DNA of 45,921 nt, from sequence record ON470589.1. One strand, given 5' to 3'. This document shows, one piece after another, positions 1 to 13,662 of the stretch (position 1 is the stretch's first letter; each line of letters opens with the position of its first letter). A model generated the notes under the pieces. The model was given only the letters and a program-made list of their open reading frames with translations. It was not told the DNA's origin and searched no databases. The position numbers and the translations under genes are program-made. The DNA is from Escherichia phage vB_EcoP-611R6.

Positions 1-1434
1 TTAACCCAGTTGCCAGAGTGCTCCATGTTGCAGCACAGCCACTCCGTGGGAGGCATAGAGCGACAGTTCCCGTTCTTCTGGCTGCGGATATATTCGGCTA
101 CTCATCACCGCCTCCCCGTCGTTAATAAATACTTCCACGGATGATGTATCGATAAATATCCTTAGGGCGAGCATGTCACCCTGCGGGAGGGGAATACTAC
201 GGTAGCCATCTAAATTCTCGTGTGGGTAATACCGCCACAAAACAAGTCGCTCAGATTGGTTATCAATATACAGCCGCATTCCAGTGCCGAGCTGTAATCC
301 GTAATGTTCGGCATCACTGTTCTTCAGCGCCCACTGCAACTGAATCTCAACTGCTTGCGCGTTTTCCTGCAAAACATATTTATTGCTGATTGTGCGGGGA
401 GAGATAGATTGATGCTGCTGGCGTAACGACTCAGCTTCGTGTACCGGGCGTTGTAGAAGTTTGCCATTGCTCTCTGATAGCTCGCGCGCCAGCGTCATGC
501 AGCCTGCCCAGCCTTCACGTTTTGAGGGCATTGGCGATTCCCACATATCCATCCAGCCGATAACAATACGCCGACCATCCTTCGCTACAAAGCTTTGTGG
601 TGCATAAAAGTCATGCCCGTTATCAAGTTCAGTAAAATGCCCGGATTGTGCAAAAAGTCGTCCTGGCGACCACATTCCGGGTATTACGCCACTTTGAAAG
701 CGATTTCGATAACTGTATCCCTCGGCATTCATTCCCTGCGGGGAAAACATCAGATAATGCTGATCGCCAAGGCTGAAAAAGTCCGGACATTCCCACATAT
801 AGCTTTCACCCGCATCAGCGTGGGCCAGTACGCGATCGAAGGTCCATTCACGCAATGAACTGCCGCGATAAAGCAGGATCTGCCCCGTGTTGCCTGGATC
901 TTTCGCCCCGACAACCATCCACCATGTGTCGGCTTCACGCCACACTTTAGGATCGCGGAAGTGCATGATGCCTTCTGGTGGAGTGAGGATCACACCCTGT
1001 TTCTCGAAATGAATACCATCCCGACTGGTAGCCAGACATTGTACTTCGCGAATTGCATCGTCATTACCTGCACCATCGAGCCAGACGTGTCCGGTGTAGA
1101 TAAGTGAGAGGACACCATTGTCATCGACAGCACTACCTGAAAAACACCCGTCTTTGTCATTCTCGTCTCCTGGCGCTAGCGCAATAGGCTCATGCTGCCA
1201 GTGGATCATATCGTCGCTGGTGGCATGTCCCCAGTGCATTGGCCCCCAGTGTTCGCTCATCGGGTGATGTTGATAAAACGCGTGATAACGATCGTTAAAC
1301 CAGATCAGGCCGTTTGGATCGTTCATCCACCCGGCAGGAGGCGCGAGGTGAAAATGGGGATAGAAAGTGTTACCTCGGCGCTCGTGAAGTTTTGCTAGTG
1401 CGTTTTGCGCCGCATGTAATCGAGATTGCGTCAT
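1..1434 (-). CDS. cscA: Sucrose-6-phosphate hydrolase (invertase, glycoside hydrolase family 32)
   Basis: ORF 1..1443 minus; GH32 motifs (WMNDPNG, FRDP, WECPD); likely start at the 4th codon (MTQSRL) giving 477 aa; stop codon at positions 1-3. Confidence 0.85.
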   Translation of the reverse strand: MTQSRLHAAQNALAKLHERRGNTFYPHFHLAPPAGWMNDPNGLIWFNDRYHAFYQHHPMSEHWGPMHWGHATSDDMIHWQHEPIALAPGDENDKDGCFSGSAVDDNGVLSLIYTGHVWLDGAGNDDAIREVQCLATSRDGIHFEKQGVILTPPEGIMHFRDPKVWREADTWWMVVGAKDPGNTGQILLYRGSSLREWTFDRVLAHADAGESYMWECPDFFSLGDQHYLMFSPQGMNAEGYSYRNRFQSGVIPGMWSPGRLFAQSGHFTELDNGHDFYAPQSFVAKDGRRIVIGWMDMWESPMPSKREGWAGCMTLARELSESNGKLLQRPVHEAESLRQQHQSISPRTISNKYVLQENAQAVEIQLQWALKNSDAEHYGLQLGTGMRLYIDNQSERLVLWRYYPHENLDGYRSIPLPQGDMLALRIFIDTSSVEVFINDGEAVMSSRIYPQPEERELSLYASHGVAVLQHGALWQLG

Positions 1435-1467
1435 TTTTATCATCCTGGTTAAGCAAATTTGGTGAAT

Positions 1468-1545
1468 TGTTAACGTTAACTTTTATAAAAATAAAGTCCC
1501 TTACTTTCATAAATGCGATGAATATCACAAATGTTAACGTTAACT
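1468..1545. promoter_or_regulatory. Divergent cscA/cscK promoter region with two identical 14-bp palindromes TGTTAACGTTAACT (1468-1481 and 1532-1545), candidate LacI-family (CscR) operators
   Basis: Exact duplicated palindrome with CG centre in the 206-bp AT-rich intergenic region between divergent genes. Confidence 0.4.
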
Positions 1546-1649
1546 ATGACGTTTTGTGATCGAATATGCATGTTTTAGTAAATCCATGACGATTTTGCGA
1601 AAAAGAGGTTTATCACTATGCGTAAGTCAGATGAATTTAAGGGAAAAAA

Positions 1650-2573
1650 ATGTCAGCCAAAGTATGGGTTTTAGGGGATGCGGTCGTAGATCTCTTGCCA
1701 GAATCAGACGGGCGGCTACTGCCTTGTCCTGGCGGCGCGCCAGCTAACGTTGCGGTGGGAATCGCCAGATTAGGCGGAACAAGTGGGTTTATAGGTCGGG
1801 TCGGTGATGATCCTTTTGGTGCGTTAATGCAAAGAACGCTGCTAACTGAGGGTGTCGATATCACGTATCTGAAGCAAGATGAATGGCACCGGACATCCAC
1901 GGTGCTTGTCGATCTGAACGATCAAGGAGAACGTTCATTTACGTTTATGGTCCGCCCCAGTGCCGATCTTTTTTTAGAGACGACAGACTTGCCCTGCTGG
2001 CGACATGCCGAATGGTTACATCTCTGTTCAATTGCGTTGTCTGCCGAGCCTTCGCGTACCAGCGCATTTACTGCGATGACGGCGATCCGGCATGCCGGAG
2101 GTTTTGTCAGCTTCGATCCCAATATTCGTGAAGATCTATGGCAAGACGAGCATTTGCTCCGCTTGTGTTTGCGGCAGGCGCTACAACTGGCGGATGTCGT
2201 CAAGCTCTCGGAAGAAGAATGGCGACTTATCAGTGGAAAAACACAGAACGATCGGGATATATGCGCCCTGGCAAAAGAGTATGAGATCGCCATGCTGTTG
2301 GTGACTAAAGGTGCAGAAGGGGTGGTGGTCTGTTATCGAGGACAAGTTCACCATTTTGCTGGAATGTCTGTGAATTGTGTCGATAGCACTGGGGCGGGAG
2401 ATGCGTTCGTTGCCGGGTTACTCACAGGTCTGTCCTCTACGGGGTTATCTACAGATGAGAGAGAAATGCGACGAATTATCGATCTCGCTCAACGTTGCGG
2501 AGCGCTTGCAGTAACAGCGAAAGGGGCAATGACAGCGCTGCCATGTCGACAAGAACTGGAAAGTGAGAAGTAA
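1650..2573 (+). CDS. cscK: Fructokinase (PfkB/ribokinase family)
   Basis: 307 aa; N-terminal VLGDAVVDL and C-terminal GAGDAF motifs of the PfkB sugar kinase family. Confidence 0.85.
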   Translation: MSAKVWVLGDAVVDLLPESDGRLLPCPGGAPANVAVGIARLGGTSGFIGRVGDDPFGALMQRTLLTEGVDITYLKQDEWHRTSTVLVDLNDQGERSFTFMVRPSADLFLETTDLPCWRHAEWLHLCSIALSAEPSRTSAFTAMTAIRHAGGFVSFDPNIREDLWQDEHLLRLCLRQALQLADVVKLSEEEWRLISGKTQNDRDICALAKEYEIAMLLVTKGAEGVVVCYRGQVHHFAGMSVNCVDSTGAGDAFVAGLLTGLSSTGLSTDEREMRRIIDLAQRCGALAVTAKGAMTALPCRQELESEK

Positions 2574-2634
2574 ACGGCGAGGCCGCTCTTATCTCTAAAT
2601 AGGACATGAATTTTTTAACGACAGGCAGGTAATT

Positions 2635-3882
2635 ATGGCACTGAATATTCCATTCAGAAATGCGTACTATCGTTTTGCATCCAGTTACTCATTTCTCTTT
2701 TTTATTTCCTGGTCGCTGTGGTGGTCGTTATACGCTATTTGGCTGAAAGGACATCTAGGATTAACAGGGACGGAATTAGGTACACTTTATTCGGTCAACC
2801 AGTTTACCAGCATTCTATTTATGATGTTCTACGGCATCGTTCAGGATAAACTCGGTCTGAAGAAACCGCTCATCTGGTGTATGAGTTTCATTCTGGTCTT
2901 GACCGGACCGTTTATGATTTACGTTTATGAACCGTTACTGCAAAGCAATTTTTCTGTAGGTCTAATTCTGGGGGCGCTCTTTTTTGGCCTGGGGTATCTG
3001 GCGGGATGCGGTTTGCTTGACAGCTTCACCGAAAAAATGGCGCGAAATTTTCATTTCGAATATGGAACAGCGCGCGCCTGGGGATCTTTTGGCTATGCTA
3101 TTGGCGCGTTCTTTGCCGGTATATTTTTTAGTATCAGTCCCCATATCAACTTCTGGTTGGTCTCGCTATTTGGCGCTGTATTTATGATGATCAACATGCG
3201 TTTTAAAGATAAGGATCACCAGTGCATAGCGGCGGATGCGGGAGGGGTAAAAAAAGAGGATTTTATCGCAGTTTTCAAGGATCGAAACTTCTGGGTTTTT
3301 GTCATATTTATTGTGGGGACGTGGTCTTTCTATAACATTTTTGATCAACAACTCTTTCCTGTCTTTTATGCAGGTTTATTCGAATCACACGATGTAGGAA
3401 CGCGCCTGTATGGTTATCTCAACTCATTCCAGGTGGTACTCGAAGCGCTGTGCATGGCGATTATTCCTTTCTTTGTGAATCGGGTAGGGCCAAAAAATGC
3501 ATTACTTATCGGTGTTGTGATTATGGCGTTGCGTATCCTTTCCTGCGCGTTGTTCGTTAACCCCTGGATTATTTCATTAGTGAAGCTGTTACATGCCATT
3601 GAGGTTCCACTTTGTGTCATATCCGTCTTCAAATACAGCGTGGCAAACTTTGATAAGCGCCTGTCGTCGACGATCTTTCTGATTGGTTTTCAAATTGCCA
3701 GTTCGCTTGGGATTGTGCTGCTTTCAACGCCGACTGGGATACTCTTTGACCACGCAGGCTACCAGACAGTTTTCTTCGCAATTTCGGGTATTGTCTGCCT
3801 GATGTTGCTATTTGGCATTTTCTTCCTGAGTAAAAAACGCGAGCAAATAGTTATGGAAACGCCTGTACCTTCAGCAATATAG
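2635..3882 (+). CDS. cscB: Sucrose:H+ symporter (MFS oligosaccharide permease, LacY-like)
   Basis: 415 aa polytopic membrane protein; 61 bp downstream of cscK on the same strand. Confidence 0.85.
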   Translation: MALNIPFRNAYYRFASSYSFLFFISWSLWWSLYAIWLKGHLGLTGTELGTLYSVNQFTSILFMMFYGIVQDKLGLKKPLIWCMSFILVLTGPFMIYVYEPLLQSNFSVGLILGALFFGLGYLAGCGLLDSFTEKMARNFHFEYGTARAWGSFGYAIGAFFAGIFFSISPHINFWLVSLFGAVFMMINMRFKDKDHQCIAADAGGVKKEDFIAVFKDRNFWVFVIFIVGTWSFYNIFDQQLFPVFYAGLFESHDVGTRLYGYLNSFQVVLEALCMAIIPFFVNRVGPKNALLIGVVIMALRILSCALFVNPWIISLVKLLHAIEVPLCVISVFKYSVANFDKRLSSTIFLIGFQIASSLGIVLLSTPTGILFDHAGYQTVFFAISGIVCLMLLFGIFFLSKKREQIVMETPVPSAI

Positions 3883-10690: not shown

Positions 10691-10924
10691 CTATTGATTC
10701 TTTTCAAGAACATCAATGATGTCGTCCGGGTTGTCTCCGTTGTCTTCACAAAATGCTTCGAATTCAGCCCATTTCGCGCTGATAAAATCAATTACTCTCA
10801 TTAATTCGTATTCCATATTTTTCTCCAGACCAAAAGAATGCCGCCCATATAGAGCGGCAAGACTATCAAGGAATGATTTCCAATAATCAGAACAAGTCGG
10901 CTCCTGTTTAGTTACGAGCGACAT
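10691..10924 (-). CDS. Small hypothetical protein (start ambiguous: 10924 or internal Met at 10816 with better RBS)
   Basis: Internal start MEYELMRV is preceded by GGAG plus 6 nt; a 9-bp inverted repeat lies just upstream at 10930-10957. Confidence 0.4.
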   Translation of the reverse strand: MSLVTKQEPTCSDYWKSFLDSLAALYGRHSFGLEKNMEYELMRVIDFISAKWAEFEAFCEDNGDNPDDIIDVLEKNQ

Positions 10925-10972
10925 TGCTCCGTGTATTCACTCGTTGGAATGAATACACAGTGCTTACTCGTA

Positions 10973-11443
10973 CTAATAAAATACCCAATTTTCTGTTTCT
11001 TGGTTGTGCCCAAAGTTATATTCAATATCTGGTGTTGATGTATCAATATTCTTCATCCCATCAACAAGAGTTGATACAACAGCCAAATCTTGTTTGATTC
11101 TCATTAAATGGTATTTCTTCCGGCGCAATAAACTTTCAATGGCAAGTTTCTTCGTTGGGAATGCAAAAGATCTTTCTGCATTTTTTGCTACTTTCTTAAT
11201 TGCATATCTATTTCTCCTTTGTTTCCATTCCTGTAACCACTGATTTGGTGCTGGTTTAAAATTAACAATCCAATGCGCAGGAACCAACCATGCATAATGC
11301 TCTGTCTGATGAAAAGCTATATATTGAAGTGCGAATATTTTTATCCCATCTTCTTCAACTGTCGCCTGGAATCTCCAGAAAACAGGCATTCCATCATGTT
11401 CAGTTTCTGATTCAGGAAAAGGTACGCTCCATGATTTTGTCAT
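10973..11443 (-). CDS. AT-rich hypothetical protein, first gene downstream of N
   Basis: 156 aa; visibly lower GC than its neighbours; no transmembrane segment; no recognised family. Confidence 0.55.
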   Translation of the reverse strand: MTKSWSVPFPESETEHDGMPVFWRFQATVEEDGIKIFALQYIAFHQTEHYAWLVPAHWIVNFKPAPNQWLQEWKQRRNRYAIKKVAKNAERSFAFPTKKLAIESLLRRKKYHLMRIKQDLAVVSTLVDGMKNIDTSTPDIEYNFGHNQETENWVFY

Positions 11444-11451
11444 ATCTCACC

Positions 11452-11751
11452 TCAAATAAGTGGTTTGCTGCCTAATTTCATTTTCTGGCGACCAACACAA
11501 GTCACACCCATTTCACTGCGCGGCTTGCGGTAGTAAATACGGTTCTGTTTACGCTCGACTTCTTCTGCCTTCTTGCAGCGAAGGCTTCCGAGTGATGCTG
11601 CTTTATCTGCTCTGACGCAACCAGAGAGCTTTAGCGCAATTTTTCGCGCCAGTCGCTGCTCTTGCATTGCCTGTTCACGTTGAGTCTGTCTGCGTGCTCT
11701 GCGGCGATTTCTGGCGTTATCGTCAGCCAGATATGTAATGACTACTGTCAT
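11452..11751 (-). CDS. N: Antitermination protein N-like (arginine-rich motif)
   Basis: 99 aa; N-terminal ARM DDNARNRRRARRQTQREQ; lies downstream of nutL/OL on the minus strand. Confidence 0.65.
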   Translation of the reverse strand: MTVVITYLADDNARNRRRARRQTQREQAMQEQRLARKIALKLSGCVRADKAASLGSLRCKKAEEVERKQNRIYYRKPRSEMGVTCVGRQKMKLGSKPLI

Positions 11752-11945: not shown

Positions 11946-11987
11946 TCCCGCATTTCGGCGGGACAATCCCATCAATGTTAAAGAGCC
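11946..11987 (-). promoter_or_regulatory. nutL (boxA GCTCTTTAA plus boxB hairpin)
   Basis: Minus-strand boxB TCCCGCCGAAATGCGGGA is identical to the nutR boxB. Confidence 0.5.
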
Positions 11988-12034
11988 TGCCAATCTGTTC
12001 CGTTTGGCTACCAGCGTCCTGCTGATGGCTAAAG

Positions 12035-12073
12035 AATACTGTAGGTATTTTATTGTGTAAATACCCAAGGTAT
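12035..12073. promoter_or_regulatory. OL operators: AATACTGTAGGTATT (12035-12049) and AATACCCAAGGTATT (12059-12073)
   Basis: Perfect AATAC-N5-GTATT palindromes, same half-site as the OR sites. Confidence 0.5.
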
Positions 12074-12205
12074 TTATTTTTGATGAAATAATGATAAACA
12101 AATGAATACAAAGGATATTTATTTTTTCGGTATCTGCTTGTTCAGTGCTTTTTATGCGGGATATGTGAAGTGGATCCCGATAGCTATTGCTGCCGGGATT
12201 ATGGG

Positions 12206-12574
12206 TTAGTCAGCGAAGGTTAAGACGAGAATTACCTTAATGATGTCTGCTACAACAGACACGGCCATAGATAAACCAAAGACGATCCAAGCCATAGAGA
12301 TGTCTTCACTACCATCGTATAGAGTTCCGTAATCACTGGTGTAAGGCGTAAATGTCGCGCCTTGATACAACAGGTATAAGCTTGATCCATAGAGGATAAA
12401 TGCAGATATCCCTTGTATTGCTATGACCACTAGAATCATGAAACGAGCTGATCTATGCGCCCAAGCCTGGCTTATTTTTTCTGATAGAGATTTCGCAATA
12501 AAAGCATGCGCTAAGCCGTAAATTGTTGAGATTGCCAACATCCCAAAAAAGCTTGCTATAGCGGTTCCAACCAT
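12206..12574 (-). CDS. Small integral membrane protein (3 predicted TM helices) co-transcribed with cI, at the rexB position
   Basis: 122 aa; RBS AAGGGGGA begins 2 nt after the cI stop; lies between cI and OL. Confidence 0.6.
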   Translation of the reverse strand: MVGTAIASFFGMLAISTIYGLAHAFIAKSLSEKISQAWAHRSARFMILVVIAIQGISAFILYGSSLYLLYQGATFTPYTSDYGTLYDGSEDISMAWIVFGLSMAVSVVADIIKVILVLTFAD

Positions 12575-12593: not shown

Positions 12594-13310
12594 TCAAACC
12601 AGCCTTAGTTTTGTCTCAATTGCAACGCCTATAATCTTGCAGTTTCCATTGATTGGCACGAGAGGCCATGCAGGGTTAAGTCCCTTGAGGTATTTATTTC
12701 CGCCGTCGATTATCAGCTTCTTGAATGTTGCTTCGTTAGAGTCAGAAAGTTTTGCTATGACCAGGCTGCCGTTGATCGCCTCCCTTCCGGTATCGAAAAG
12801 AACGAATGTTCCCTCTGGAATGCTTAACCCAACCGGTGCCGTCATTGAATCACCTTCCACTTTAAGCCAGAACGCATTGCCTTGAATATGCGCGTCAGAC
12901 TCAAGCCAAACATCTATGTCTTTAATGGTGTATGGTTCGCATGCTTCACACCACGAGCCAGCCTGGATACTGCTTAACACCGGATACCTCTTTCCTGCTC
13001 TGTATTCCCCTGCATACCTTACGTTGGCATCGCTCTTAAGGCTTTCTGCCTGTTCTGCAACCTTGGCAGCAATTGACTGGCTAAAATCAGCAATTGAGAC
13101 TTGCAACAAACGTGCAAAACCAGATGCGACCTCAACGTTTAGCGCGTTTCTGCCATTAAGATAATGCCCTACCGCTCCTTGGGTGATACCCAGTTCATCA
13201 GCGATTGAGTATTGGGTTATTCCCAATTCTTTCTTTTTTGACTCATACAAAGCCTTAAGCCGCTTAGCGTCTTCGAGCTGTTCTGTCGTCAGTGATTTTT
13301 TATTTTCCAT
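12594..13310 (-). CDS. cI: CI repressor (HTH_XRE N-terminus, LexA-like S24 autocleavage domain)
   Basis: 238 aa; close in sequence and length to lambda CI (LTTEQLEDAKRLKALYE...; ...FWLKVEGDSMTAP...). Confidence 0.9.
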   Translation of the reverse strand: MENKKSLTTEQLEDAKRLKALYESKKKELGITQYSIADELGITQGAVGHYLNGRNALNVEVASGFARLLQVSIADFSQSIAAKVAEQAESLKSDANVRYAGEYRAGKRYPVLSSIQAGSWCEACEPYTIKDIDVWLESDAHIQGNAFWLKVEGDSMTAPVGLSIPEGTFVLFDTGREAINGSLVIAKLSDSNEATFKKLIIDGGNKYLKGLNPAWPLVPINGNCKIIGVAIETKLRLV

Positions 13311-13345
13311 AGCTTAATTCTAATAGCTAAGGTACTTAAACTAAA

Positions 13346-13385
13346 AATACCCTGAGTATTGATTGCTTTGAATACCTGTAGTATT
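13346..13385. promoter_or_regulatory. OR operators: AATACCCTGAGTATT (13346-13360) and AATACCTGTAGTATT (13371-13385)
   Basis: AATAC-N5-GTATT palindromes between divergent cI and cro. Confidence 0.55.
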
Positions 13386-13410
13386 CTTTGTTCATGGTTA
13401 ATAACGGAGA

Positions 13411-13618: not shown

Positions 13619-13662
13619 GCTCTTTAACAGTCATGGTCCTCATTCCCGCCGAAATGCGGGAA
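13619..13662 (+). promoter_or_regulatory. nutR (boxA CGCTCTTTAA 13619-13628; boxB TCCCGCCGAAATGCGGGA 13645-13662)
   Basis: Canonical boxA followed 16 nt later by a 5-bp stem hairpin with an A-rich loop. Confidence 0.55.

Follow-up and report, generated by a model that had tools for sequence, protein, structure and literature searches.

The window analysed here is the whole 45,921-nucleotide stretch of record ON470589.1, from Escherichia phage vB_EcoP-611R6. Its first part (1-3882) is host DNA with a csc-like sucrose locus, encoding a GH32 invertase, a PfkB sugar kinase, and a LacY-type sucrose permease. The rest of the window corresponds to a P22/HK620-like prophage, and the boundary between both parts lies between ~3.9 and 5.0 kb. 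The coordinates of the main features are listed in Table 1. The most AT-rich stretch of the window is found at 41539-42666 on the plus strand, with ~35% GC at 42441-42600, in the Acyl_transf_3 gene, a probable moron for O-antigen modification. A 122-aa hydrophobic protein (12206-12574, minus strand) of phrog_6534, a family with no assigned function, is encoded immediately past the repressor gene, in a rex/sieB-like position. Similar genome records carry the annotation 'superinfection exclusion protein' in the stretch 12206-12574.

Table 1. Features of the window in the surroundings of ORF156 and at the end of the prophage
Feature	Position	Strand	Description
Terminator-like site	10829..10859	minus	UGCCGCUC-UAUAU-GGGCGGCA then UUCUUUUGG; terminator scan
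AU-rich hairpin	10926..10963	minus	just past the ORF156 stop; arms 10926-10942 and 10947-10963
ORF156	10973..11443	minus	156-aa ORF, ATG start
Mosaic junction	11441..11459	minus	TTATTTGAGGTGAGATATG, 19 nt; N stop, Shine-Dalgarno sequence, and ORF156 start codon
N-like antiterminator	11452..11751	minus	99 aa; phrog_271, E 1.6e-36; weak Pfam N_peptide match
nutL	11947..11986	minus	boxA GCTCTTTAACA and boxB hairpin CCCGCCGAAATGCGGG
OL operator-like palindromes	12035, 12060, 12105 (span 12035-12119)		three, AATAC-N5-GTATT; overlap the pL-like promoter
pL-like promoter	12061..12033	minus	TTTACA-17-TATTCT; sigma-70-like, promoter scan
cI-like repressor gene	12594..13310		flanked by OL and OR operators
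OR palindromes	13346, 13372 (span 13346-13386)		at least two, AATAC-N5-GTATT, same type as OL
nutR	13619-13660	plus	boxA GCTCTTTAACA and boxB CCCGCCGAAATGCGGG, identical to nutL
Tailspike gene	39623-41542		Head_binding domain; just before the Acyl_transf_3 gene
Integrase gene	43520-44713		end opposite the host DNA; adjoins the acyltransferase gene

The start codon of ORF156 is located 8 nt past the stop codon of the N-like ORF, and its Shine-Dalgarno sequence, GAGGTGA, overlaps this stop codon. An earlier note on this DNA, made from the sequence alone, had described a 156-aa ORF at this place as the first gene after N in the pL operon; the ORF was found, with an ATG start on the minus strand, and the phrog_271 ORF next to it and the identical boxes of nutL and nutR agree with that assignment. 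The note had also considered the gene more AT-rich than its neighbours, and the calculation bears this out, since the GC content of ORF156 is 36.1% (GC3 28%) versus 49.3% in N, 40-46% in the genes downstream, and 46.4% in the whole window. Among all 471-bp windows, ORF156 lies within the lowest 0.5% by GC. The encoded protein possesses no cysteine and is basic (pI 9.07). Transmembrane segments were not found in it, as the note had stated, the maximum 19-residue Kyte-Doolittle mean being 0.56.

The genes and sites around ORF156 are organised as in the early left operon of a lambdoid phage. The repeat families D1, I1, and I2 join 12031-12126 to 13344-13389, that is, OL to OR. The pattern of boxA followed by boxB occurs exactly twice in the window, in nutL and nutR, with 0 copies expected by chance. 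The N-like protein harbours the arginine-rich motif NARNRRRARRQ in its N-terminal part and is 98% identical to N of phage Gally. On the minus strand, the terminator scan detected no terminator-like site from pL to the end of ORF156, Rho-dependent stops not being readable from sequence. The promoter scan detected no sigma-70-like promoter on the coding strand in the 8-nt gap between N and ORF156. Because OL and OR share their operators, nutL and nutR are both present, and no terminator-like site stands before 10859, the predicted transcription unit comprises pL/OL, nutL, N, ORF156, the hairpin, and the first terminator. These sequence features place ORF156 between the operator-controlled pL with its nutL and the first terminator, which is the position of an immediate-early gene of the pL unit. 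In lambda, the N-independent pL transcript stops at tL1. ORF156 should therefore be expressed alongside N, ahead of antitermination, and should stay repressed in lysogens, with Rho-dependent stops possible on the way.

The hairpin just past the stop codon of ORF156 was already visible in part to the earlier note, as a 9-bp inverted repeat at 10930-10957. The repeat is real and longer, forming on the transcribed strand a 14-bp stem with a 4-nt loop, and the U-tract is absent. In its 71-nt context the hairpin reaches -25.6 kcal/mol (z -4.7), a value equalled by 0 of 200 shuffles. It is identical in HK97, 933W, and phi367, is missing from the non-E. coli homologues, and matches no Rfam family. 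The intrinsic terminator-like site farther downstream (10859..10830) consists of an 8-bp GC-rich stem followed by UUCUUUUGG. It is classified here as tL1-like because no other terminator-like site comes between it and pL. HK97 and 933W possess at the equivalent place a different hairpin, GCCCTCC-N4-GAGGGC followed by a T-run, which the HK97 record gives as a putative terminator. A metagenomic homologue with 71% identity follows a 76-aa N-like gene and carries GGCCGC-AUAA-GCGGCC-U6 directly past its stop codon. The order N, ORF156, terminator recurs with three unrelated terminator sequences, namely in the window, in HK97/933W, and in locus L010.

The same terminator-like hairpin (10859..10830) falls inside a 77-aa ORF on the minus strand (10691-10924), whose first 50 nt correspond in HK97 and 933W to conserved sequence that is non-coding there. 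In its N-terminal half this ORF is probably not real. Only residues 36-75 match phrog_15754, which points to a 42-aa gene that begins at an internal Met in place of the 77-aa ORF.

The window, HK97, and 933W are identical from ~58 nt before the ATG of ORF156 to ~115 nt after its stop, and then differ. When the window, Gally, HK97, and phi367 are aligned as DNA, the junction TTATTTGAGGTGAGATATG is common to phages with different flanking genes. Phage Gally shares the 99-aa N allele and the junction with the window, but continues with other genes and lacks ORF156. In phi367 the junction stands after ral, which is located directly upstream of ORF156. HK97 and 933W carry 58 nt between N and gp45, a non-coding leftover from the 3' end of the 99-aa N allele. 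The stretch that encodes the final 17 codons of N in the window (11441-11510) is this spacer in HK97 (L004, 2940-3003) and in 933W. The junction and the N remnant represent a clean example of lambdoid mosaic joints.

In prophages of Pectobacterium and Brenneria the homologue of ORF156 is the last gene ahead of xis-int, and Bas81 and NX263 have it at the start of a divergent early operon, before a ParB-like gene. By its placement in these genomes, ORF156 behaves as a cassette that moves among accessory slots. According to the earlier note, lambdoid phages place anti-restriction and host-takeover genes such as ral in the first position after N; the other genes found there in Gally and ral directly upstream in phi367 support the region after N being a variable accessory slot. 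Since the homologue occupies the far end of the operon in Pectobacterium and Brenneria, it is not always immediate-early.

ORF156 is a genuine, selected, and widely distributed phage gene. Its protein is 100% identical to L0079 of 933W and to the equivalents in phi24B, BP-4795, Stx2 phage 86, and Min27, among others, and 99.4% identical to gp45 of HK97. A homologue with 99.4% identity is located between N and gp17 in the GenBank record of H-19B (AF034975.3; L035, 1715-2182). This record gives no annotation for it. For the 103-aa ORF neighbouring ORF156 in the window, a P22 gp17-like identity was rejected. The sequence of ORF156 is not new, because the genome records of 933W and HK97 already carry it as a 'hypothetical protein'. 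The protein was found in 82 phage records, mostly of Stx phages, with at least 99% identity in 73 of them, and the DNA in 598 out of 5426 complete E. coli genomes (11%), with up to four matching places per genome. The family also has members in HK97, P22-like phages, and virulent phages without lysogeny. These counts contradict the description of the gene as an orphan in the earlier note. Likewise, the note recognised no family, and ORF156 belongs over its whole length to phrog_1636 (E 2.7e-112; residues 1-156 align with positions 1-156 of the 156-position profile), a family with no assigned function.

Homologues with 55-85% identity were found in Pectobacterium, Brenneria, Cronobacter, and Rosenbergiella, as well as in siphophages of Salmonella and E. 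coli, and the alignment of 20 of them has 40 invariant columns. A profile search against 1.84 billion cluster representatives returned 87 matches at E<1e-3, most of them stand-alone proteins of 125-165 aa with 20-30% identity. The scan of genome contigs for family members returned 7 loci. Eighty out of 81 aligned family members matched phrog_1636, and the members are spread over phrog_1636, 13631, 25384, and 28215, none of which has an assigned function. They occur in phages of Enterobacterales, Pseudomonas, Vibrio, Rhizobia, and Bacteroidota. Fusions to a known domain were not seen across the family.

In the comparison of five homologues, pN was 0.17-0.27 and pS was saturated at 0.78-0.91, so that ORF156 is under purifying selection. 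The low GC content was read by the earlier note as a sign of recent acquisition. This reading was not supported: the homologues from Pectobacterium, Brenneria, Salmonella, and metagenomic prophages likewise have a GC content 5-10 points lower than that of the locus around them, and because this applies to every host examined, the low GC is a standing trait of the family and not the mark of import from an AT-rich donor. The recent event looks instead like the spread of a cassette with at least 99% identity among unrelated lambdoid phages of E. coli.

A first AlphaFold2 model of ORF156, built with 20 close homologues, reached a pLDDT of 59.5 and was replaced by a model based on the alignment of 81 sequences, with a pLDDT of 95.3 and a pTM of 0.82. 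This model contains a long beta-hairpin (residues 19-30 and 33-46), a third strand (50-55), a fourth strand (83-86), two short helices, and a 33-residue helix (98-130), against which the four-stranded sheet packs. The C-terminal tail is ordered in the model and ends in a conserved aromatic-x-Phe. ORF156 is predicted to be a compact soluble alpha/beta protein, and it is restricted to phages. The median pI of the family is 9.0, and the residues conserved across it include R24, E46, T47, K75, K83/84, K87, and R91, in addition to T97, A101, R108, K109, Q/H112, and H/R115.

Searches against known families and structures gave no assignment. With ORF156, Pfam yielded no match at E<=1 except noise, NCBIfam yielded no match, PADLOC yielded zero matches, and sequence and profile searches of the PDB found nothing. 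Among all 81 family members, Pfam gave no match and PADLOC scattered noise alone. The profiles of Ral (PF11058) and Lar (PF14354) matched neither ORF156 nor any of the 81 members. No likeness was found between the fold of the model and solved anti-defence structures (Ocr, ArdA, Acb1/2, Tad1/2, Gad, and others), the model showed none of the known DNA-binding folds, and the sequence contains no recognisable enzyme motif. The predicted fold has no relative among solved structures. PipX and the C-terminal Tudor domain of UvrD/PcrA, both small SH3/Tudor-like barrels with helices, obtained scores below significance, and Foldseek gave no match. This likeness may serve as a lead and is not evidence of membership. 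Two enzyme candidates were dropped, a 2H-phosphoesterase (H-x-T motif), with its His conserved in just ~40%, and an ADP-ribosyltransferase (Y-R ... E-T); in both cases the second motif is absent and the fold unmatched. A literature search with the terms L0079, HK97 gp45, phrog_1636, and vb_24B_11c found no paper on the gene.

The arrangement in the window is similar to that of L0079 in 933W, gp45 in HK97, vb_24B_11c in phi24B, and ORF18 in BP-4795, where it likewise comes directly after N and ahead of a terminator. However, the N upstream is of the 127-aa H-19B type in those phages, whereas the window possesses the 99-aa P22-like type. Ral of lambda and P22, and Lar, are like ORF156 early accessory genes of the pL operon located just past N. 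Ral is a Cys-rich protein of 66 aa, in contrast to the Cys-free 156 aa of ORF156, and the sequences are not similar. Since ral and ORF156 co-occur, one does not simply stand in for the other.

In coliphages, the ral region has been described as an accessory region with counter-defence genes and triggers of abortive infection, one such trigger being orf184, for the gop-beta-cII abortive system (Silas et al., bioRxiv 10.1101/2023.04.06.535777). An identity of ORF156 with orf184 was considered and rejected: orf184 (lambdoid phage, JQ182733.1), an uncharacterised accessory gene from the same type of ral-containing region, encodes a different, acidic protein of 107 aa that is unrelated to ORF156. 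Neither ral nor orf184 is present in the window. The 200 accessory genes in the screen of Silas et al. (bioRxiv 10.1101/2023.04.06.535777), whose list was checked for family motifs, do not include the ORF156 family.

The neighbourhood of the distant relatives was surveyed in about 20 independent contexts. In five of them (Medea1, Nafs113, Touem01, the Marinobacterium prophage L019, and the metagenomic prophage L020) a DNA methyltransferase gene is located 2-5 genes upstream of the family member, and in L022 a Lar_restr_allev gene is found 2 genes upstream of a distant homologue. Distant homologues a few genes past an orphan methyltransferase (PF00145) or Lar gene were observed repeatedly among unrelated phages and prophages, in L005, L007, L014, L019, L020, and L022. 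Genes for recombination or replication adjoin the homologue in Vibrio phage PvVp04 (RecE) and in Bas81 and NX263 (ParB-like and RusA). The other contexts surveyed are runs of small early genes with no assigned function. Because methylases are frequent in phage early regions and the count covers the surroundings of family members alone, the association with methylase, Lar, and ral genes is suggestive only.

The interpretation that we favour, with a confidence that stays somewhat below even, is that ORF156 acts as an immediate-early counter-defence or host-interference factor, which would bind its target rather than catalyse a reaction. The anti-restriction or host-takeover role hinted at in the earlier note is plausible, with position, timing, and neighbourhood as its support, timing and neighbourhood strengthening it somewhat. 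The far-end position in Pectobacterium and Brenneria, the frequency of methylases in early regions, and the absence of the family from the 200 screened genes count against the favoured interpretation. As a mobile lambdoid accessory gene in the repressor-controlled, N-independent first stretch of the pL transcript, it would be made together with N within the first minutes of infection or induction, and it would be silent in the lysogen. The protein may act stoichiometrically, although this is a guess. Its candidate target would be phosphate-rich, for example nucleic acid itself, a signal molecule derived from nucleotides, or the groove with which a host or defence protein binds nucleic acid, and the proposed binding face comprises the family-conserved residues R24, E46-T47, K87, R91, R108-K109, H112, and R115.

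A wider form of the same interpretation, possible in our opinion and held more tentatively, would make ORF156 the founder of a family without structural precedent (phrog_1636, 13631, 25384, and 28215), composed of early phage proteins that neutralise a conserved target of host immunity or housekeeping, across phages of Enterobacterales, Pseudomonas, Vibrio, Rhizobia, and Bacteroidota. In the lambdoid and Stx phages of E. coli the gene would be wired into the N-independent immediate-early transcript, and its product would act before any other phage function.

Phage-autonomous binding of DNA or RNA fits equally well with a small basic protein kept from enterobacterial to Bacteroidota phages. ORF156 could accordingly be a non-essential nucleic-acid-binding helper or regulator for the phage itself, in early transcription, processing of the N-leader RNA, recombination, or replication, possibly via the conserved palindrome or hairpin adjacent to its gene. 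The basic character of the family with its conserved Arg and Lys positions, the very different hosts, the recombination and replication neighbours in PvVp04, Bas81, and NX263, and the perfectly conserved 14-bp palindrome that accompanies the E. coli cassette are consistent with such a role. However, the gene is patchy among close lambdoid phages, being absent from Gally despite the same N allele, its position in the operon varies, the hairpin is missing beside the non-E. coli homologues, and a known DNA-binding fold was not detected. We consider this role unlikely on balance.

Still less probable, in our estimate, is a function as an anti-competitor weapon, a Kil-like host killer, or a trigger or decoy of an abortive system, acting by early host shutdown or by exclusion of co-infecting phages. 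Such genes are found in the same company: orf184 comes from the same accessory region, kil is located a few genes downstream in the pL operon of 933W and HK97, and ORF156 is itself an early, AT-rich, mobile cassette. Nonetheless, it shows no likeness to any toxin or PADLOC defence model, and it is intact in the 11% of E. coli genomes that carry it, at up to four matching places each. Furthermore, protection of the lysogen is not possible for ORF156 because its position in the operon keeps the gene repressed there.

A lysogen-expressed moron with its own promoter, serving as a fitness or virulence factor of Stx prophages, is very improbable: the atypical GC (36.1% versus 46.4%) and the terminator at 10859..10830 provide two of the three classic features, and the phage records with ORF156 are mostly of Stx phages, but this reading is disfavoured because the 8-nt gap after N has no promoter-like site on the coding strand and the gene lies inside the operator-controlled pL unit, and the gene occurs in HK97, P22-like phages, and virulent phages without lysogeny as well.

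Most of the sequenced Stx-converting phages possess ORF156, as do HK97 and roughly one complete E. coli genome in nine. The novelty lies in the reasons for testing the gene, namely the predicted unit shared with N, the confident fold with no solved relative, and the company of ral, Lar, and orphan methylases. The gene is a concrete and cheap target for anti-defence screens. If ORF156 disarms no host system, it is one more conserved accessory ORF. If it does disarm one, as the counter-defence interpretation proposes, this would help to explain the host range of Stx phages and would add a new anti-defence fold.
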